A stretch of DNA of 64,000 bases from Corallochytrium limacisporum Hawaii (taxonomy: Eukaryota > Protista > Pluriformea), in the NCBI GenBank assembly GCA_002811645.1, contig PDIP01000006.1, forward strand, positions 1-64,000, given 5' to 3'. Position numbers and translations under genes: made by a program. Numbering within the stretch: position 1 is the stretch's first letter; each line of letters starts with the position of its first letter. The notes under the pieces are model-generated. The model was not told the DNA's origin. It saw only the letters and a program-made list of their open reading frames with translations, and did no database searches. Of this stretch, positions 39,463 through 48,719 are shown in pieces.

Positions 39463-39840
39463 TTATGTCTTAAAAATGCCAGCATGCGCAGCAAATTTGG
39501 TGATCTGGGAACCTTCTCGGGGGTGGTGCAAGCGAGAGTCCCTCGGCAGCACTGGGGCAATCAAGGGGTTTGAGTGCCAGCCGTATTCGTGTGCCGTTGT
39601 TGCCGGATCGTCGTACTTCTCCACCGGAGGGGCCACCATTCGCTTTAGTGTCTCGTAGAATCCTGGATCCTCGACATCGTGGGCGGCCATTGAGTCTTGG
39701 GGCTTGGGTGGCAGGTAGTGAAGAGACTTGGGGGTTGGTTTGTAGGCGGTGAAAGGCCGGAAAAAGGCGTCTTCTTTCTCAATCGTTTCCCTCAGGATCC
39801 TCTCCTTCTTGACCTGATCAAGACCCTCCTCATTGGTCAT
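39463..39840 (-). CDS. CFAP144/FAM183-like cilia- and flagella-associated protein
   Basis: ILRETIEKE...PVEKYDDPATTAHEYGW...DSRLHHPREGSQITKF matches the FAM183 pattern; ATG at 39840. Confidence 0.7.
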   Translation of the reverse strand: MTNEEGLDQVKKERILRETIEKEDAFFRPFTAYKPTPKSLHYLPPKPQDSMAAHDVEDPGFYETLKRMVAPPVEKYDDPATTAHEYGWHSNPLIAPVLPRDSRLHHPREGSQITKFAAHAGIFKT

Positions 39841-40387
39841 GGCTATGCTTTGGATGATTTGTTCAAACTCCACGGTTTGCTGGGATCCAAGGTGCGGAAT
39901 CGAATGGCTCAATGATGGCATACGTACTCCAAAGTACCACCACCCGTCCCCACCCTCCTTGTTTCCAATCAAACCCGCCCGCCGAGAAGAGAGATTTTTT
40001 GGGTGCCTATAGCGCGAGTGTCGCCTGGCGGGACACGGGTTTACGTTGGTCACCGTCAAATCTTGCCAACCTTTCCCCCAATTCTTCCCTGCCCCCTTTC
40101 TTTGTCTCCTTTTTCCCCATGCCGTTGGGACAAACGTTTGCTACCCCCCTTGTGTGCACAGTCAAACGCGGACACGGGGAACCAACCTGCCTTGGCAACT
40201 TTGTGCGAAAAAGCCAGCTGGTTCAATGGGACCTTCCAGGAGCTTGCAGCACTAGCATAATCTTCCCACAACCATCCCAACCCCGCAACAGTTTTTACGT
40301 TGACAAGACCCCCCCCCTTCACTCGGGGAGAAAAAAAAAAGCCTCCCCCATTAGGGGCCTGCCTGTAGTGAAAATACCGAATTTGAG

Positions 40388-40582
40388 AAATCTGGGGGTC
40401 TCACTATGGACGGTCACAGATCAGAATCCTGTCAACCGATTTCGAAGATTCGAAAACATGGAACATGACAAGATATGATAATTTACACTTGTGTATGTTT
40501 AATTATCATGTTTATGATGCATGTCCAAAAAAATTGCAAAAAAAAAAGAAGCTTGGAAATTCCGAGCAGGGTGATTCGAACA
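40388..40582 (-). repeat. Direct repeat, left copy (195 bp): 22 nt of tRNA-Tyr 3' end (40561-40582) plus ~170 bp of downstream flank; att-like junction
   Basis: Matches 46880-47073 except for 3 substitutions, one ~20-bp diverged patch and A10 vs A8. Confidence 0.95.
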
Positions 40583-40789
40583 TTCTATACTGTGGCGTTG
40601 CTGGTGGTCTCTAAGTGCAATTTGAGGCACTGTTTGGTGGTAGTTCCTGCCTGTGACGTATATCGGGGCGGGTCTCTCGTTTCTTCCTGTTCTGTGAGTC
40701 CCTCTCCACTCCGACGGGGACTGCGTTGAAAAGGAAGAAAAAAAAGAAGAGTGGTTACGATACGGTGGATTGAGACTCTTCAAGGTCAT

Positions 40790-43700
40790 CTACTGTTTCT
40801 TAGGTTTTACGGTATGCCAATGCGTAGAGTGGACTTTCGTGGCCCTACACCCCCTTCTCACCCCCCTCCCCGGGGCCCCTATTGGTAGTCTTTGCCCAAC
40901 GCGCCGGCCGCTTAGCCTCTTGCGTTGGGCGCCTCGTGTGGCTGCACCTTCAGCGGGTTGTGAGCATTGCATCGGTGCGGGGGGAAGGGCGAGCTGGTGA
41001 GATCCCGTGTACGGACCGAGAGGTTTGGCCATTGTTGGCGCCTGGGCCCGGCCCATCTTATGCCTCGCTATTCCCATGAGGTTCGTCCACTTGTCATCCA
41101 CATCACTGTCCACAATTTGAGGACAGCGAAGTTTGCCACGTAGATGGGTATAGCACTCGGCGAAGCACGCTTCCATTACAAAGTTGGCCAGGTGGGATTG
41201 CCTGCGCGGATCCTGCAAGAGGTATCGGTCCAGCATGACAGCTACAGTATGACCCATACACTGTGCCAATTGCTCCAAATAGGCCCTCTTGTTGCCACTT
41301 CCCGTGGTGTCGATGAGTCCGACCGCATAGGTCACGGCTAGGTGCCGCACCTTATGGCTGGTCATCTTACATTCACCACCAGAGAGCTCCTCCACGCAGT
41401 GCTGGAACGCAATGGCAACCGATTGATTGCATACCCGACAGTGCTCACGGGACTTGACTGGATCAGCGCGGGCAGGGCAACGTGAGCACTGCAAAGGAAA
41501 GAGGGGCAATTTGAGCCTGAGCCTGTCGTTCCGCGCCAAAAAGAAACACCGTTCCCTTATGCGCCTCTGCAGCTCGGGCACAGACCGCAAAGATCCCTGC
41601 GTGGACTTCGGGTTCGGGCCGTGGAGGGCCAACGCCTCAGGAAAGACCGAATCCGGAGCGGCCACCGGCAACACAATGCGAATGTACCAAGCAACTATTT
41701 TGGCCAGTTCCTTGTAGAGCCATGTGCGATCAATGTACTTGCGTTTGAAACAGCTTGTCTTGATCCTGGCGGGCCAATAGATATGACCACCTATCAAAGG
41801 ACGCATCGCTTGCTCCGCTGCTGTGGCTCGCTCAAAGGATCCGACTAGGGCGGCACGCAGGATGCTCTGCCGCGGGAACCCCGTCCCCATGACCTGAGTA
41901 AGGACATGTTCTTGGATCCTGCGGCTGAGACTGATGAGCTGCTGCACAGGCGATGGTGGTGGCACATACTGTACATTCTCGTCACGCACACAATTGGCAT
42001 CGCTACCAAAAGACAGAAGGTGATGCAGGAGCGTGCGGTTATCGTCATCGAGCAAGCGACCCATGCCATCAGGGTGATTGTTGATGCTCTTAAAGAAGGG
42101 CATGAGGAAATGGTGAAGTGACTTGTTTAAGTACTCATCGAGCCCTTTGAATCCGTCCCTGGGGATCTTGCCGGTCGCAAGGGCGCGCTCATGAGAAGAG
42201 CAGTACGTGTCTACCAACTTCCTCTGATTGTCCAGATTTCTGAGGGCAAGCTGCAAATCGCTGATACTTTTGTTCCACTGGGCCTGGATACCAGACGCCT
42301 TCATTATTTGTGCAACTGCAGCGTGGCGGTTTAGTGCGGTGCTGCCATGGTGGCTTCCACTGCTGCGACCATGGTTAGCAGGTGCTTTCATGAGGCGCAC
42401 AATGTCTCTCAGTGCCTTGCTGACGTTGAGAACACTGCGCACACTGCCTGCCAAAGTACGCGGCATCTTGTAGAGCTTGCGGAGGAAGGAGTCACCCTGG
42501 GCGTAAGAGACAACAATGCGGCGATAGTATCGGCGAAATTGAATGTGTTTATCCTTGTGCGCTTGCTTGAACGTATCAAATGCCCGCGACAGCGACTGCT
42601 TCAATTTCAATTCAATCCACTGGGTAACCATACCATTATCGTAGAATGGCCGCAATAGCTGCCTTGGGTCACGCAAGAGTGTATCAGTCATCGACGGTAT
42701 GTAATCATGGACCCGGTGACAGTAGAGGAGATAGCCACGCACATCTGCAAGATGCGCTGAGGTCGTCTTACGGGGTTCGCTACAGGCAAATGCCAGCAGT
42801 ACCTGTCGAGGTTGGGATGCCTTCTCGGTGTCTCGCTTTTGCTTGCGCTGCCACCACTCATGCCAGCCATTGCGTCGCAGAGCCACGGTGACAATGGTAC
42901 CGATTCCATGCCATAGTGTCTCCACCCACTGTTGGAGCCAGGCAACGTGACCTCCCTGGGCCGTTGTGGTGCCGTCGATTAGCGACTCTGGTTCTACAAT
43001 CATGTCAAAGTCTGTGTTTGGCAGTCTGAAGACCAGCGAAATCGGAACTAAGACACGCGCCACAGCCGAGATACCGTCCACTAATGTCTTGTCCATGTCT
43101 TCATCTTTGTCCGTTCTGTTGTTTTCTTCAGATGCGTCTTCTCCATCGGCGAGTACGGATTCGTCGCCATAGTCAGCGTCCAAGATCTCCTCTTGCTCTT
43201 GTGCCTCATCCTTAGCCTCGGGCTGCGGGTGGTACGCCATCAGCTCAGAATGTAAGTCAATCGAGGGTAACGGACACCGTCCGGTAGAGGTTCCCTTGGG
43301 AAGCATGCAAGCATCAACCTGCTCCTGGTGCTCGATCTCAAGCAGTGCTTGGTCTAAGCGTTCCACATCTTGTTCAAACCCTGGGTCGCTTCGCAGACTC
43401 TTGATGCGCCCGCGGCGATTAATCTCGCCGACGGCGGCGCCAACGTCCACTGCCGGTGTCTTTTCGTAGGATAAGTCAGCAGTGCGATCGTTCATTTGAA
43501 TGGAATGGTAGTAAGCCCGGTGCAGCTCGTAGTTGTGCTGAAGCAGGCCAGACTGTTTGACACTACGAGACTGGAGCTTGCGAGCACACTTGGAGCCCAT
43601 GTGAATTGGTAGCATTTGTCCATCTCGCACGGGCGGCGCCACGTCCCGAGATGCCCAATATTGGTGCCATGCTGCCCAATTGACCACCCGAAAGAGACCA

Positions 43701-46393
43701 TCCAAGTCCTTGGTGGTCATTGGTTGCCCTTCTTCGGTCAGGAACAAGTTCTCAGCTCCTTTGAACCCCTTGTCCTGTCCCAATAGGGCCGGATGTACAT
43801 ATTTGCAGTAGACACGAAGCACACGCGACACAACTGGAGGAATGGGAATCTCGGTGGCATGTCCGGCCAAACAGTTCTTGTGCTCAAGGGGCATGTCCAC
43901 AAAGCTGACCATTTCGCGATCCAACGTTGAGTCCCCGGAGTGCACCAGGTGACTCAGATATCCGTACACCATCTTGGTGCAGTCACCATCAGTCCCGGCG
44001 GGAACAGCAGCCAACCTGAACGCGGCTTCCTGTTCGTAGCCGCAGCCAAACTCACCACTGGCCCTTGTGAGACCACACAGCACGGAGGGGCGCTGGTTGG
44101 GTACTAAATAGTTTAGAAGCATGACGAGAAGCATTACCATCTGTACGCGCACAATACCGTTCTCCCTAACGTATCTACAAATATGAGACTGTCGGTTCGT
44201 TCCGTCGTTAGCGCTGACCAGATCAAGGAAGTCCCGAACAGCTGGCTCGATGAGGTCAGTGAGTCCTGTCATCATGGCGAGGACGTCAGTCTGCCGCGGC
44301 ACACGACCCTTCTCCTCATCGTGCCGGCTGGTGCGTGCAGTGTTCTCGACCTCAATATTTGGATACAGATCATTCTCTTTGGTGAGGTTCTTCAGGAGAT
44401 CCAGGACTCTTTGCGACCCTTCCAGGACGTGCTGGCATCGGGCTGCAGTGGGCATGAGTTCATGAATGTTGGCCGCGCGCAGCGCCTCCACCAATTTTCT
44501 CATTCTTGTAATTTTGTTCCTCCTAGCCCCAGCACATACCGTCCAGTGCCACTTGCGTGTTTCACGGTCATCATCAAAGTCGTCAGTGCCGTCATCGGCA
44601 TTGTCCGCGGATGCCCCCCTCTTCTGAACCACAACTCGGCGGAAATACTCCGCATGCCATTCCGGCTCTGCCATAATGATCTCAAACAGAAAGGTCCAGT
44701 CGCTGTTGAGGTCCTCTATCCTACAAACCAGATGAGCAGGAGGTACAGAGTCCTGCTCGAGTAGTGAGTCCACCTCTGGATCATCAACGGGCCGGGTGGC
44801 AAGATCCAGGAAGAAGGTCCAAAATTGCCGGCCCATGCCCAGGATGGCTTCAAAGAAGGAGCTCCGGCGCGTTCCATCGTTGGCGGGTATCCACTTGGAC
44901 AACATGGAGGATACGAGAGTAGTACCATCAAAGTTCTTGTTTAACCAGGCCTCCATGCGTTGTAGGTCCCCTGGTCGTTCACAAATGTGGTACAAGAAGG
45001 CGTGTAATTCGGTCTTGGTCGGAGTGCATCTTTGCTTGCCACCAACTCGCTCCTGGTTATGTACACACTTCATGGTTTTGGTCTGCGAGTCATTGAAATG
45101 TTTGATCACGCTCACAGCCACCACCCCATGGAGTAGAAGCTCCACAGTGAAATTGGAAGATCGCCCAGGTTCCAACCGATCATTTCCAATTTGATTGCGA
45201 GCAGTAGCCCTTTGCTCTGCCCGACATGAGAAATACAGAGAGTACCAAATTTGTGGATCTGGAAGCATCGCTACACTTGCCTGTAGGAATGCTTTTCGCA
45301 CCCCCAACACTCGAAGTGCATCAGGGGGGAGTTCCACTGCAGGCCCTTTGTGGTTGGGATTGTAGTTTATCTTGTGGGGGCCACTGTTCTCTTTGCAATC
45401 CTGTTTCTTTCTCCCGGCTCCTGGCTGTTGCCGACGCCATTTGCTTCGACATTGAACATCGCCCGTCCTACCATGGTAGGTTGGAAATGGCAGCTCATAC
45501 AAACCATTGCCAAAGGATCGATTCGAGCCCACATTTGCAGTCTCAACTGCCATCTTCTTTATTGTACGCACCATCGGATCACAGACCGGCAGGAGGATGG
45601 AGTCGGGCTGTCGATCCCGGTCTCCGTCCAGTGGCAATAGACTCCCGCCGTAGTGTTTCTCCTCATGTGTCATCAAGATATTGGAAGAAGCAAACGTATC
45701 CGCAGTTTGATCACCCAGGAAGTCTAGCCATCCAGGGTGGTGTTCGGCCTCGGTACCATCGATTCCGCTGTACCACCCGTCAAAAGATAGAATGCTGGCA
45801 ACCACGGAACGTTCGAGGATCAGACGTAATTGTCCCGCTGTCATCGGGACCGGCATCGTCATGATGATACGAATTGTAATCAGTTGTGCTGTCGTGGAGG
45901 GGGATCGAACGTGCCACTGATAGGCATACTCTGCATCGCTTGCATCAAGTATTGCTTGCAGAAGGCTTGCAAACTCGGCGCGGTCGCCAGAAGGTTTAAT
46001 GTTTGGGACAAACTCAGTGGTCCAAAACTGGGTACGCAGGGACGACAAACATTGCCGTGGTCCTGGTTGGTGCAGAAAATTGTGGTCAGACATGCCATTC
46101 TCATCATCACAACCATGCAAGGTGATAAATGCTTTTGGCCCTACCGGGACATGGCGGTTGGTTCGGACTTCGGTCGGACAGTAGTGTCTGATGCGCTCGC
46201 TGGTAGTTGCAAAGCCATTGGCTCCGCACCATATGCAACTCCTTGTTCCAGTGAACCACACTGGTTGGAAATTGTCGTCAATCGGGACCAATTTTTTGGG
46301 GGATCTACTCCTGATCTTGCGGGGCTTCTTCGGTACCTGTTCATCGCCAGTGAATCCGAAAGTGCACACGGCTTGTTCACTGGCATTGCTCAT
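40790..46393 (-). CDS. ~1867-aa protein with two tyrosine-recombinase-like domains and Zn-binding motifs
   Basis: C-terminal domain: FPRQSIL (R), IKT (K), SHKVRH (HxxR), MGHT (H), DRY (Y). Central domain: NQRPSVL, HKN, LFLTEEG, SKCARK, QMN, LSY. First ATG at 46393 (the track start 46441 is GTG). Confidence 0.85.
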   Translation of the reverse strand: MSNASEQAVCTFGFTGDEQVPKKPRKIRSRSPKKLVPIDDNFQPVWFTGTRSCIWCGANGFATTSERIRHYCPTEVRTNRHVPVGPKAFITLHGCDDENGMSDHNFLHQPGPRQCLSSLRTQFWTTEFVPNIKPSGDRAEFASLLQAILDASDAEYAYQWHVRSPSTTAQLITIRIIMTMPVPMTAGQLRLILERSVVASILSFDGWYSGIDGTEAEHHPGWLDFLGDQTADTFASSNILMTHEEKHYGGSLLPLDGDRDRQPDSILLPVCDPMVRTIKKMAVETANVGSNRSFGNGLYELPFPTYHGRTGDVQCRSKWRRQQPGAGRKKQDCKENSGPHKINYNPNHKGPAVELPPDALRVLGVRKAFLQASVAMLPDPQIWYSLYFSCRAEQRATARNQIGNDRLEPGRSSNFTVELLLHGVVAVSVIKHFNDSQTKTMKCVHNQERVGGKQRCTPTKTELHAFLYHICERPGDLQRMEAWLNKNFDGTTLVSSMLSKWIPANDGTRRSSFFEAILGMGRQFWTFFLDLATRPVDDPEVDSLLEQDSVPPAHLVCRIEDLNSDWTFLFEIIMAEPEWHAEYFRRVVVQKRGASADNADDGTDDFDDDRETRKWHWTVCAGARRNKITRMRKLVEALRAANIHELMPTAARCQHVLEGSQRVLDLLKNLTKENDLYPNIEVENTARTSRHDEEKGRVPRQTDVLAMMTGLTDLIEPAVRDFLDLVSANDGTNRQSHICRYVRENGIVRVQMVMLLVMLLNYLVPNQRPSVLCGLTRASGEFGCGYEQEAAFRLAAVPAGTDGDCTKMVYGYLSHLVHSGDSTLDREMVSFVDMPLEHKNCLAGHATEIPIPPVVSRVLRVYCKYVHPALLGQDKGFKGAENLFLTEEGQPMTTKDLDGLFRVVNWAAWHQYWASRDVAPPVRDGQMLPIHMGSKCARKLQSRSVKQSGLLQHNYELHRAYYHSIQMNDRTADLSYEKTPAVDVGAAVGEINRRGRIKSLRSDPGFEQDVERLDQALLEIEHQEQVDACMLPKGTSTGRCPLPSIDLHSELMAYHPQPEAKDEAQEQEEILDADYGDESVLADGEDASEENNRTDKDEDMDKTLVDGISAVARVLVPISLVFRLPNTDFDMIVEPESLIDGTTTAQGGHVAWLQQWVETLWHGIGTIVTVALRRNGWHEWWQRKQKRDTEKASQPRQVLLAFACSEPRKTTSAHLADVRGYLLYCHRVHDYIPSMTDTLLRDPRQLLRPFYDNGMVTQWIELKLKQSLSRAFDTFKQAHKDKHIQFRRYYRRIVVSYAQGDSFLRKLYKMPRTLAGSVRSVLNVSKALRDIVRLMKAPANHGRSSGSHHGSTALNRHAAVAQIMKASGIQAQWNKSISDLQLALRNLDNQRKLVDTYCSSHERALATGKIPRDGFKGLDEYLNKSLHHFLMPFFKSINNHPDGMGRLLDDDNRTLLHHLLSFGSDANCVRDENVQYVPPPSPVQQLISLSRRIQEHVLTQVMGTGFPRQSILRAALVGSFERATAAEQAMRPLIGGHIYWPARIKTSCFKRKYIDRTWLYKELAKIVAWYIRIVLPVAAPDSVFPEALALHGPNPKSTQGSLRSVPELQRRIRERCFFLARNDRLRLKLPLFPLQCSRCPARADPVKSREHCRVCNQSVAIAFQHCVEELSGGECKMTSHKVRHLAVTYAVGLIDTTGSGNKRAYLEQLAQCMGHTVAVMLDRYLLQDPRRQSHLANFVMEACFAECYTHLRGKLRCPQIVDSDVDDKWTNLMGIARHKMGRAQAPTMAKPLGPYTGSHQLALPPAPMQCSQPAEGAATRGAQRKRLSGRRVGQRLPIGAPGRGVRRGCRATKVHSTHWHTVKPKKQ

Positions 46394-46879
46394 GTTTACA
46401 TGTGTTACTTTTCTATAACGCGCAAAAATGGAGATAGCCACGAACTACAGTATGCGACACACTATCGAACCTGATGTAGGTTGCAGTGCCCCAGGCATAT
46501 GGTCTTCGCGCGGTGAGATCAGGTGAAAGACTTGATGGCATCTGTGAGACCCACCCACCCTCAAACCACCCTGCCCTTGGGGTAATTTGAAACTTTCCCG
46601 GCACGGCTACGGCCAATTCCAGGTGAATTTTTCCTCCAATCCATAGGGGCGATCTTGTGTACTGAAGAGTCTCATAGAAAATCGCAATGGGAAATATATA
46701 CGGGGAAGCACTGGATCACGATTCACTATTAGACACTGAAAAGGCCTGGCGCGGCTTAAGGTGTACATATAAATGAGACTCCCGTCATCACCGGGGGCTG
46801 GCGGAAAAAAAAGAGAGAGTCTCCCTTATGCACTCCCCTCTCGCTCCTTCAGCTGATAGTAAAAGTACTACAAAACAGT

Positions 46880-47073
46880 AAATCTGGGGGTCTCACTATG
46901 GACGGTCACAGATCAGTATCCTGTGAACCGATTTCGAAGATTCGAAAACATGGAACATGGCAAGAACTTATTTTATACACCTGTGTTATGTTTAATTATC
47001 ATGTTTATGATGCATGTCCAAAAAAATTGCAAAAAAAAGAAGCTTGGAAATTCCGAGCAGGGTGATTCGAACA
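46880..47073 (-). repeat. Direct repeat, right copy (194 bp), supplying the 3' end and terminator of the intact tRNA-Tyr
   Basis: Near-identical to 40388-40582. Confidence 0.95.
47020..47038 (-). terminator. RNA polymerase III terminator (T8 then T7 tracts) downstream of tRNA-Tyr
   Basis: + strand aaaaaaattgcaaaaaaaa gives oligo-T on the tRNA strand ~13 nt after the discriminator; also present in the left repeat. Confidence 0.85.
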
Positions 47074-47170
47074 CCCGACCTAGAGATCACTATTCGGTAT
47101 GTTTAGTACCGGATTTCAGATGAATTTGCGCATCTACAGTCTCCCGCTCTACCAACTGAGCTATGCTCGG
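47052..47170 (-). tRNA. tRNA-Tyr(GUA) with a 46-nt canonical-position intron (47088-47133)
   Basis: Reverse complement folds as CCGAGCA/TGCTCGG acceptor, GCTC/GAGC D arm, GGAGA-CT-GTA-G^A-TCTCT anticodon arm and GGGTG-TTCGAAT-CACCC T arm; 73 nt after splicing; no encoded CCA. Confidence 0.97.
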
Positions 47171-47861
47171 TGAGTGCTTCTGATGGGCGAGGGTGGAAAA
47201 AAAGTATATAAACTACTGAGCAATGCACGTGTTTGAGTTAGGTTTTCAGTGAAAGTCTGGTGGCGGTGGGGTGATGGATGTGGGCAATTCGGTGGACGGG
47301 AAATGTCTACGTTTGAAGGGGGGCGGCAGGGGGGAGACTCCTCCATCGAGGAGCGAGGCGTGCTCGGTTGATATAACCCCACACACCACAAAAAGAGGAA
47401 AGTTTCTTCTTCCTTCCTTTTCTCTTGTTTCCTTTTCTTTCTTTCGTTTCTTTCCTTTGTCGTCCAGCTGGCGGCGCCTCTCGTCCCTCGAGAACCATGG
47501 CTCGGCCCTCCTGTTCTTCTATTTCCTCGAATACGCCAAGAGTGTGTACACACCCATGGAGGCATTGTTAGCATTTCCTTTTTTTTTTTTTTAACTGTTC
47601 TTCCCTCTCCCGATTCTTATTGTTGGCTCCGGCGGGGCTATTGCCAATACGAAAAAGGGACAGGGCCCGAGGGGAGGAGGAGGAGGGGGGCTTGCCGTGT
47701 TTTCCAGCCGTGGACTGTTTGTGTCCCGTAACGGGCAGGTAGTTGAGGGAAAAATTAGAAGGTTATGATATTGAAATTGAAATGCCCAAAGACCATGCAA
47801 CGACAGACACATACCCAAGAAAGAAAAAGAGAGCAACAAAGCCAATCTTAAACTCAAGAGG

Positions 47862-48719
47862 ATGTCGTCAAATCCACCACCTGGCTATGGCCAGCCGCCG
47901 CAGGGGTACGGACAGCCACCGCAGGGATATGGCCAGCCACCACAGGGATACGGACAGCCACCGCAGGGGCACGGACAGCCGCCGCAGGGGTACGGACAAC
48001 CACCGCAGGGGTACGGACAACCACCGCAGGGATATGGACAGCCGCCCCAGGGATATGGACAGCCGCCCCAGGGATATGGCCAGCCGCCGGCGCCGGGCCA
48101 AGACTACGGATCCATGCTTCCTTCAGAGTATAGAAACAATGGTCAGGGCGCGGAGCAGAGGCCCAGTGCGGGCACCGTTCCAGACAACTACGCACAAACG
48201 GCCCAGGCAGCATATGGTGGTCAACAGCCGCCATCAGAGCCGCTGCCATCGTCTCAGCAAGAACCACCTTCCTCAAAGAAGCAGCAAATGATGAACGAGC
48301 AACAACAAAACTATGCTCCGCCGCCCATGCCGCCACCGGGACAGGCACCGGGAGCGTATCCGTACCCACCAGCGGCCAACCCTGTTCCGGAAGGAACGGA
48401 TTTCAATGCCCGCGAAGTAAAAGACTTCCCCAACGAGTTCGACGACGAGTCCAAGGGCAAGGGTGCCTTCAAGAATTTCATTGGCCTAAACACTGCGCGT
48501 TGCGCAGTGTGCCAGCAAAAGAATCGAGTGCGCGATGGCCAGGCGCGAATCTACAGCTGCGGTCGCTGCGGGGAACTGTCCCTGGCGGAAGGGGTCAAGG
48601 GGCCCAAAGATCCAACCAAAAAATTTTTCCGCTGTGGCTGCAATGCACTGCTCATCATGGACAAAAACTCCATGATTTTCATGTGTCCACGTGAACGTGC
48701 AATTCGTGGCTGTGGCTAA
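47862..48719 (+). CDS. Pro/Gln/Gly/Tyr-repeat protein with TMEM55 (PIP4P)-like Cys-rich Zn domain
   Basis: About ten PPQGYGQ repeats; C-terminal CAVC...CGRC...[13 protein letters not shown]...CPR resembles the TMEM55 KKYVRCPCNCLLIC...CPR region. Confidence 0.7.
47876..48089 (+). repeat. Coding 21-bp tandem repeat (PPQGYGQ)
   Basis: About ten units of ccRccNcagggRtaYggMcaR, mostly with synonymous variation. Confidence 0.9.

Follow-up and report, generated by a model that had tools for sequence, protein, structure and literature searches.

The window analysed here, positions 1 to 64,000 of contig PDIP01000006.1 from Corallochytrium limacisporum Hawaii (64,000 nt), carries a ~6.5-kb insert at a tRNA-Tyr gene. 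We put at roughly 55% the probability that a circular form of this insert was integrated there by the product of its own gene, which likely has a tyrosine-recombinase (YR) domain at its C terminus. The insert holds one ORF only, and the feature set of a prokaryotic-type tRNA-integrating element is present: the 3′ part of the tRNA gene is directly repeated, the whole tRNA standing at one end and an orphaned 3′ piece of it at the other. As we analyse them, the tRNA-bounded repeats around the ORF are the signature of an integrase-type insertion into a tRNA gene. The genes around the insert are ordinary eukaryotic housekeeping genes. Coordinates of all features are collected in Table 1.

Table 1. 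Features of the insert at tRNA-Tyr and of its encoded protein (window coordinates).
Feature	Position	Strand	Basis or remarks
Complete tRNA-Tyr(GTA) gene, 46-nt intron	47052..47170	minus	Rfam; ARAGORN with intron option; arms fold
tRNA-proximal direct repeat (attL-like)	46880..47073		Last 22 nt of tRNA-Tyr and T8 run (47031-47038)
5′ non-coding part of insert, tRNA-proximal repeat to ORF start	46442..46879	minus	Window sequence
Single intact ORF, 1,883 codons	40790-46441	minus	Window ORF calling
Candidate central YR-like region, aa 770-985	43487..44134	minus	By-eye block match, hhalign, Atlas
Acidic linker between central and C-terminal regions, aa 1075-1117	43091..43219	minus	Sequence
C-terminal tyrosine-recombinase-like catalytic region, aa 1510-1745	41207..41914	minus	Motifs, PHROGs, Atlas, hhalign
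Four-cysteine motif CxxC-x12-HCxxC, aa 1652-1671	41429..41488	minus	Sequence; within long K1561-H1696 insertion
3′ non-coding part of insert, stop codon to distal repeat	40583..40789	minus	Window sequence
Distal direct repeat (attR-like)	40388..40582		Orphan last 22 nt of tRNA-Tyr (40561-40582); T10 run (40538-40547)

The tRNA-Tyr(GTA) gene matches the Rfam tRNA model over positions 1-71 (56.9 bits, E=1.2e-9). The direct repeats are ~195 nt long and reach ~170 nt past the tRNA's 3′ end, through its T-run terminator. The repeat starts at 47073, where the 5′ strand of the T-stem has 2 nt left before the T-loop, and in both copies the repeat boundary lies exactly at the T-stem/T-loop junction. 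Beyond this boundary the two copies part: the body of the tRNA adjoins the proximal one, and unrelated DNA of the insert adjoins the distal one. The two copies differ by 10 substitutions and 2 indel events over 196 aligned columns, with eight of the substitutions falling within 22 columns; the second copy therefore did not arise by duplication in the assembly. Over their first 88 nt the copies are identical save for the length of the T-run. Judged from the two copies, such clustering fits a pair of diverged att partners better than the even decay of a target-site duplication.

In two DNA runs there are contigs that bridge from the insert into each repeat, and a contig from another study spans the upstream flank together with the tRNA and the repeat. 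Parts of the window to the right of 47073 lack contig cover in the DNA runs, and nothing follows from this. The contigs of four runs contain no empty-site or circle joint; contigs drop rare forms, so their absence is not proven. One copy of the ORF was seen, with no second one in protein searches or run contigs. Contig depth over the insert (172; 622-624) is similar to that over the flank (165.5; 650), although depth here is not a measure of copy number.

In the integration that we propose, the likely YR of the 1,883-codon gene would insert the element, in circular form, into the tRNA-Tyr(GTA) gene by a crossover in or near the T-loop, whose 7 nt (TTCGAAT) are flanked by the stem arms GGGTG/CACCC. 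The tRNA-proximal repeat would then have arrived with the element and would now supply the 3′ end and the T-run terminator of tRNA-Tyr, so that the gene stays whole, and the original 3′ end, with the DNA that lay downstream of it, would have moved 6.5 kb off.

The length of the repeats invites another explanation, in which the encoded protein did not make them. Circular or linear DNA sharing ~195 nt with the region downstream of tRNA-Tyr could have entered by Campbell-type host homologous recombination, or the repeats could be remnants of a local duplication of the tRNA-Tyr locus, the ORF being a passenger or a host gene. The total identity, with its uninterrupted 88 nt, is ample for homologous recombination and far exceeds typical YR cores, and no tRNA function demands the part of it that lies past the tRNA 3′ end. 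The codon usage of the ORF resembles that of neighbouring host ORFs (RSCU r=0.65, GC3 0.59), so it may be long established in the genome or have been domesticated, and no further copy was seen. However, the homology starts exactly at the T-stem/T-loop junction, the classic place of integrase crossover in prokaryotic tRNA-integrating elements, and the only gene of the insert has an integrase-like C terminus. A simple tandem duplication would moreover leave a second whole tRNA rather than its last 22 nt. We regard an origin of the repeats independent of the encoded protein as quite improbable. As an observation on the repeats themselves, ~195 nt of identity is long for an att core; it speaks against an integrase and equally allows host recombination.

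The first ATG of the ORF is codon 17, at 46393, and a basic cluster, PKKPRKIRSRSPKK, occupies residues 37-50 of the product. The sole database match of this product is itself, as the EukProt ‘Clim’ gene model: when 1.84 billion representative proteins were scanned in full with HMMER, only the protein itself came back, word-indexed protein searches gave nothing further, and a viral scan yielded no relative. The one locus given by a metagenome scan is spurious, being AT-rich and having no ORF beneath the match. NCBIfam, Pfam and PDB-sequence searches gave no YR match for any part of the product, and Pfam at E<=10, run on the whole protein and on pieces, returned no YR family (PF00589, Phage_integrase). 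In the Pfam search of the ORF, 0 families were found, with neither a reverse transcriptase, an RNase H nor another domain. In a presumed RNA run, a few short low-depth contigs fall within the ORF (42775-43005, 46165-46398) and in a second presumed RNA run none do, which is uninformative on expression either way.

The original prediction had described two YR catalytic domains in one polypeptide, a canonical one at the C terminus and a variant one in the centre, each preceded by a putative helical core-binding region. The peptide strings it quoted are all present where it had placed them, on the minus strand and within the one ORF. For the C terminus the exact residues of its set are R1524 (FPRQSIL), K1561 (IKT), H1696/R1699 (SHKVRH), H1731 (MGH) and Y1740 (DRY). 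These follow the YR order R, K, H-x-x-R, H/W, Y, with a spacing of 9 between H1731 and Y1740 (~9-10 in the superfamily). The bare residue pattern is no commoner than chance gives: with the whole protein shuffled, the strict form R..K..HxxR..[HW]..Y turns up in 61 of 100 sequences, and with the C-terminal segment shuffled, in 22 of 300. Thus, the weight of the motifs as evidence lies in their local contexts, which are canonical for all six residues (TGFPRQSIL, ARIKTS, TSHKVRHLAVTYA and CMGHT..VMLDRY).

Several searches point to the same region. The PHROGs integrase family phrog_34557 matches a 71-residue piece (aa 1680-1750; profile positions 124-163 of 183) at E=0.0052, a value that comes from one of seven pieces of our own choosing; on the 381-residue C-terminal piece the same family gives E=0.092. 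Among the language-model neighbours of the C terminus in Atlas are a YR/integrase cluster (0.95; 12 of 30 hits in the set) and a protelomerase cluster (0.94). Aligned by hhalign with a 13-sequence YR profile, the C terminus scores 20.0, which 1 of 110 shuffles reached, and along the whole protein the C-terminal windows are the best scorers against this profile, with hmmsearch as with hhalign. Its members are 13 E. coli K-12 matches to PF00589, and their alignment has no conserved stretch; the profile is too shallow, since even the C terminus reaches just 4.3 bits. A tblastn search against phages gave one match for the C terminus, at E=0.1, to hypothetical proteins. The four-cysteine motif has a weak Pfam FYVE match (E=0.38-0.54).

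Each of these lines, PHROGs, Atlas and hhalign alike, is weak, and from the sequence we consider the C-terminal motif set to be probably a true YR domain. Such a domain is likely, and the tRNA-bounded repeats fit it. Conversely, the ORF could be an orphan host gene lacking recombinase activity, with the YR-like motifs in both halves arising by chance. This would agree with the want of a significant match to curated YR models, with the frequency of the motif pattern among shuffles and with the weakness of every positive signal by itself. Chance does not, however, predict that such a gene should lie between repeats starting in a tRNA T-loop, and the independent weak signals, namely PHROGs, Atlas and the best window of the two profile methods, converge on the same 70 residues. 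We judge the orphan-gene reading very unlikely. As an orphan of 1,883 residues among 1.84 billion representatives, the protein would therefore mark a recombinase lineage missed by current profiles.

For the central region the support from sequence is marginal. The original prediction assigned it the variant set R784, K855, K951/R954 (SKCARK), M983/N984 and Y992. The strings are present, but the QMN and LSY assignments look wrong. Compared by eye with XerD and XerC, the region can be read instead as R784, K855, LPIH947..S950 or K951..R954, LLQH969 and Y978. In this alignment Y978 stands nine residues after LLQH969, the LLGH...Y spacing of both XerD and XerC, an agreement seen by eye and without statistical support; H969 and Y978 are thus preferred to QMN and Y992 as the last catalytic residues, and the latter pair was rejected. 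With the central segment shuffled, 41 of 300 sequences contain the relaxed pattern R..K..KxxR..Y.

Were both regions domains of the YR fold joined in a single chain, the protein would be a built-in pseudo-heterodimer in which each module reads half of an asymmetric att core, or in which the centre acts as a structural or directionality partner. Five XerD/XerC blocks can be found in the centre by eye, in the right order and at plausible spacing (VMLLNYLVPNQRPSVLCGLT, EIPIPPVVSRVLRVY..HPALL, NLFLTEEGQPMTT, LPIH, and LLQH with Y978 nine residues on), yet in the preferred alignment the position of Arg-II is taken by Ser950. The Atlas neighbours of the centre include a YR cluster at rank 12 (0.93; 7 of 30 hits) and a ResT/TelK cluster (0.92), whereas the Pfam, PHROGs, NCBIfam and PDB libraries contain no match for it at any threshold. 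Against the 13-sequence profile the local hhalign score of 16.9 was reached by 5 of 110 shuffles, but the global score was reached by 28 of 270 and was equally high for an N-terminal control window, and hmmsearch bits were negative (-1.2 to -1.7). Similarly, when the Smith-Waterman scores with the 13 YRs were added up, 1 of 200 shuffles reached the sum, but the alignments behind it are not the collinear ones and control segments also gave z ~1.3-1.5. A tblastn search of the centre against phages found nothing.

Internal duplication is not supported, because the two halves have no similarity to each other (best BLASTP E=1.9; hhalign probability 0.2; Smith-Waterman score below the shuffle mean). 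AlphaFold2, run on single sequences without relatives, gave unusable models with mean pLDDT of 37.7 (aa 690-1010) and 37.4 (aa 1400-1780). With these models (pLDDT ~37), Foldseek against the PDB returned only noise, with nothing at E<=0.001 for either half. Since it missed YRs for the C-terminal half too, this test had no power.

Taken at the level of sequence, the central region could be a second YR module in degenerate form, perhaps without Arg-II, and we do not rely on it. The fusion of two YR-fold domains in one chain is a tentative reading, and on balance a doubtful one. The pseudo-heterodimer idea accordingly has neither support nor refutation, while one half of it, the C-terminal YR, likely holds. 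Multi-YR systems include XerC/XerD, Tn554 TnpA/TnpB and the recombinase-in-trio elements. If the central module is real, the protein resembles them in placing two different YR-type units on one site; their units, in contrast, are separate polypeptides, and our literature search turned up no account of a single chain with two YR catalytic domains.

Prokaryotic integrative elements and prophages with P4-type and similar integrases use the 3′ half of tRNA genes as their insertion site. The insert shares with them a repeat running from the tRNA loop region through the 3′ end, a regenerated tRNA with an orphan 3′ fragment at the far end, and a recombinase gene that adjoins the tRNA-proximal end. 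It differs in having a eukaryotic host and a tRNA with an intron, and in that the repeat takes in a Pol III T-run terminator. Furthermore, the repeat is much longer than usual and extends far past the tRNA, the insert carries no cargo, and the protein is four to five times as large as a phage integrase.

Starship Captains carry DUF3435. A Starship was rejected, as the ORF has no Pfam family match, the insert is small and the host label is EukProt ‘Clim’. According to the parts of the report consulted, Starships of Pezizomycotina, mobilised by ‘Captain’ YRs, have 23% of their insertion sites in 5S rDNA (PMC11162782). They are thus eukaryotic YR-mobilised DNA elements of which some target a Pol III gene (PMC11162782), but as described in those parts they are very large, cargo-carrying and fungal, compared with 6.5 kb and a single ORF here. 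Their direct repeats measure 2-16 bp and their insertions disrupt the 5S gene, again as given in those parts (PMC11162782). The DIRS, Ngaro and VIPER elements are likewise eukaryotic and YR-encoding, some with long terminal or split direct repeats, whereas the repeats at this insert are host tRNA sequence. A DIRS/Ngaro retrotransposon was rejected, the ORF having no reverse transcriptase or RNase H in Pfam, as was a Polinton-like virus, the insert holding only one gene. In the consulted portion of a report on Polinton-like virus insertion sites, no tRNA genes are described nearby (PMC12220804).

Among eukaryotic elements, Cryptons are described, in the consulted portion of the source, as YR-only DNA transposons with terminal direct repeats of 4-6 bp (Kojima & Jurka 2011, PMC3212892). 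On that description, the insert resembles them in its eukaryotic host, its few-kb DNA form, a YR as sole recognisable enzyme, the absence of a reverse transcriptase and a circular intermediate, which is inferred. The differences are several. The Crypton repeats given there compare with ~195 nt here, and the word ‘tRNA’ occurs 0 times in the text of that paper (PMC3212892), whereas this insert is tied to a T-loop. In addition, the ORF product has no sequence relative among the 1.84 billion representatives and was seen in one copy, and it is 1,883 residues long with a possible second module.

The fullest version of our proposal is a bacterial-island-style element in a close unicellular relative of animals, whose giant integrase with two YR modules, one canonical and one degenerate, would insert at the T-loop of a nuclear tRNA-Tyr gene and rebuild its 3′ end and Pol III terminator. 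We think this complete picture unlikely as a whole. If it were true, the element would represent a new class of site-specific mobile elements in eukaryotes, and its integrase would be the first hetero-YR in a single chain.

Insertion in the 3′ half of a tRNA with regeneration of the gene is a hallmark of prokaryotic integrases, and in our literature search no nuclear YR element of a eukaryote was described as doing this. The host of the insert is reportedly already transformable (10.1101/2020.11.12.379420). If the protein truly integrates in this way, it would be a site-specific integrase that is adapted by nature to eukaryotes and has a defined safe-harbour target, and a second YR module in the same chain, if real, would be a new way to build an asymmetric recombination complex.

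The window is eukaryotic, with adjoining ORFs encoding a MAP-kinase-type protein kinase, a FAM183 protein, an SNF2 helicase, an NAD kinase, a MUN-domain protein and similar products. Within it, one giant uninterrupted ORF is bracketed by direct repeats that delimit a ~6.5-kb insert, the second repeat running into a tRNA-Tyr(GTA) gene that is the sole tRNA in the 64 kb. This tRNA carries a 46-nt intron and is overlooked by ARAGORN in default mode, but is detected by Rfam and by ARAGORN with introns allowed (-i). The only database match of the giant ORF is the EukProt gene model Clim_evm15s221 (1,918 aa), whose label probably stands for Corallochytrium limacisporum. This model joins the giant ORF to the downstream FAM183 gene while omitting the ORF's final ~95 codons, the distal repeat and intergenic DNA, and is probably an annotation chimera. 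Elsewhere in the window, a 285-aa ORF that has no Pfam match starts with ten tandem 21-nt units coding for PPQGYGQ repeats.

Coordinates of the features at the tRNA-Tyr locus and residues of the giant protein
Feature	Position	Strand	Details
Direct repeats bracketing the giant ORF	40388-40582 (distal) and 46880-47073 (tRNA-proximal)		
Full-length tRNA-Tyr	47052-47170	-	Rfam 56.9 bits
Giant ORF	40790-46441	-	1,883 codons; first ATG is codon 17
FAM183 gene	39463-40059	-	Pfam PF14886, E=2.3e-19
N-terminal third	44522-46441 (aa 1-640)	-	
CxxC-x12-RHYC	46178-46237 (aa 69-88)	-	
CxxC-x12-HCxxC	41429-41488 (aa 1652-1671)	-	
C-terminal residue set	R1524, K1561, H1696-x-x-R1699, H1731, Y1740	-	exact numbering of giant ORF
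Central residue set, original prediction	R784, K855, K951-x-x-R954, M983/N984, Y992	-	exact numbering
Central block 1	VMLLNYLVPNQRPSVLCGLT		XerD/XerC AMLEVLYATGLRVSELVGLT; by eye
Central block 2	EIPIPPVVSRVLRVY..HPALL		XerD/XerC LVPLGEEAVYWLETYL..RPWLL; by eye
Central block 3	NLFLTEEGQPMTT		XerD/XerC VLFPSQRAQQMTR; by eye
Central block 4	LPIH		XerD/XerC LSPH; by eye
Central block 5	LLQH969, Y978 nine residues on		XerD/XerC LLGH, Y nine residues on; by eye
TTTTCGAATCTTCGAAATCGG	46925-46950; 40433-40458		one in each repeat copy
Tandem 21-nt units	47832-48125		
285-aa ORF	47862-48719	+	

On the minus strand, the repeat opens within the T-stem, at the final two bases of its 5' strand, covers the T-loop (TTCGAAT), the T-stem's 3' strand, the 3' strand of the acceptor and the discriminator base, and extends ~170 nt further past the tRNA, including a T8 run 13 nt after it. 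The distal copy likewise opens with these last 22 bases of the tRNA; unrelated insert DNA lies ahead of them and a T10 run comes after. An alignment of the copies over 196 columns has 10 substitutions, eight of them within 22 columns, and two indel events; the first 88 nt are identical except for T-run length. The insert is joined to both repeats in contigs from two DNA runs, and the repeat, tRNA and upstream flank are joined in one contig from a different study. The T-arm itself has the usual pair of inverted arms, separated by a 7-nt spacer. Both copies also contain TTTTCGAATCTTCGAAATCGG, some 125 nt away from the T-loop; its two TTCGAA palindromes resemble the T-loop and could be extra recombinase binding sites.

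The original prediction was of two tyrosine-recombinase (YR) catalytic domains in this polypeptide, and every string that it quoted is present in the ORF where it was placed. Shuffling reproduces the strict pattern R..K..HxxR..[HW]..Y in 61 of 100 trials with the whole protein and in 22/300 with the C-terminal segment alone, and a relaxed central pattern in 41/300 with the central segment; the motif pattern alone is not beyond chance. No curated library recognizes any portion of the protein: Pfam gave no family for the whole protein at E<=1 and only unrelated weak rows for its pieces at E<=10, NCBIfam matched no part, and PDB sequences yielded nothing relevant. Word-indexed searches found no relative besides the protein itself, and neither did a HMMER scan (filter stage only) that set aa 700-1780 against 1.84 billion representatives, which leaves nothing from which to build an alignment. 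The N-terminal third has no match in Pfam, PHROGs, NCBIfam or homolog searches. Two Cys/His motifs, one near the N terminus and one within the C-terminal catalytic region, in the long insertion that separates K1561 from H1696, may bind zinc; they have no family match except one weak FYVE row.

Several weak, independent signals converge on the same C-terminal stretch. The PHROGs integrase phrog_34557 aligns with aa 1693-1740 over positions 124-163 of its 183-position profile (E=0.092 with a 381-aa piece of the C terminus, E=0.0052 with a 71-aa piece) and phrog_23271, a short family of unknown function, matches there with E=0.0003, these values being somewhat flattering since they come from seven hand-picked pieces. 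In a protein-language-model Atlas, aa 1400-1780 neighbor a 'tyrosine-type recombinase/integrase' cluster (12/30 hits; PF00589 on 29% of members) with a score of 0.95, a level reached by ~1 in 100 shuffled proteins in the tool's calibration, and a protelomerase cluster (0.94). Against our own YR profile, built from 13 PF00589 matches of E. coli K-12, C-terminal windows are the top scorers along the entire protein by both hmmsearch (4.3 bits on the HxxR region) and hhalign (score 20, reached by 1 of 110 composition-matched shuffles). The boxes TGFPRQSIL, ARIKTS, TSHKVRHLAVTYA and CMGHT..VMLDRY have canonical local contexts when set against the E. coli rows. We regard the C terminus as a very probable YR.

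The profile evidence for the central domain is marginal. Its local hhalign score of 16.9 (null 12.5 +/- 2.1) is reached by 5/110 shuffles, its global score of 6.4 by 28/270 and equally by an N-terminal control window, and its hmmsearch scores are negative. In the Atlas, a YR cluster first appears at rank 12 (0.93, 7/30 hits), with ResT/TelK at 0.92. The central and C-terminal halves, compared with each other, show no similarity. Modelled by AlphaFold2 without an alignment, aa 690-1010 reach a mean pLDDT of 37.7 and the C-terminal control one of 37.4, and Foldseek returned nothing meaningful for either model, so that the fold comparison is without power. By eye, five blocks align in the correct order with the XerD and XerC rows, a pattern-finding exercise of zero statistical weight. 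If this alignment, with H969 and Y978, is correct, the last two central assignments of the original prediction (QMN and Y992) are wrong, and the domain would retain R, K, both His and Tyr, with Ser950 at the Arg-II position unless K951 or R954 stands in for it. We put a YR fold in the central region slightly below even odds. The original observation is borne out in part, in its strings and its probable C-terminal YR; its two-domain interpretation is neither supported nor refuted by these comparisons.

Along the locus, an intact tRNA is followed by a repeat of its 3' part, then by the insert with its recombinase-like gene, and last by an orphaned 3' end of the tRNA. Integrases of prokaryotic prophages and islands leave this anatomy when they insert into a tRNA gene. 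The anatomy is what is observed; the catalysis, the place of crossover and a circular intermediate we infer: a ~6.5-kb element with a single gene would, in circular form, have recombined with the tRNA-Tyr T-loop region via its C-terminal YR, and the tRNA-Tyr gene would now be completed by the copy of its 3' end and terminator that the element brought along. This is the likeliest mechanism, at a probability of roughly 55%. Counting against it are the host-like codon usage (RSCU r=0.65, GC3 0.59), the lack of a significant curated-profile match, and the contigs of sequencing runs, in which no second copy, empty site or circle, and no joints, were seen. A further point against it is the length of the shared repeat segment, which would also permit host homologous recombination. 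An origin of the repeats by that route, or by the local tRNA-Tyr duplication considered earlier, rather than through the encoded protein, seems unlikely.

The nearest eukaryotic kind is the Cryptons, which are YR-only DNA elements. Cryptons have terminal repeats of 4-6 bp, in contrast to the ~195-nt tRNA-derived repeats here, and tRNA is never mentioned in the sections of the Crypton survey used here (PMC3212892). Starships, also YR-mobilized and frequent in 5S rDNA, are described in the consulted portion of their report as huge and fungal, with 2-16 bp repeats and a disrupted target (PMC11162782). In the passages drawn on, no tRNA genes lie close to where Polinton-like viruses with YRs have inserted (PMC12220804), and the main text of the holozoan genome paper contains no occurrence of 'recombinase' (PMC5560861). 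Searches of the open-access literature gave nothing pertinent on eukaryotic YR elements in tRNA genes or on two YR domains in one chain. The best description of the locus is that of a probable YR-type element with a single gene, integrated at tRNA-Tyr; its anatomy is striking for a eukaryote but rests on one copy and on weak homology.
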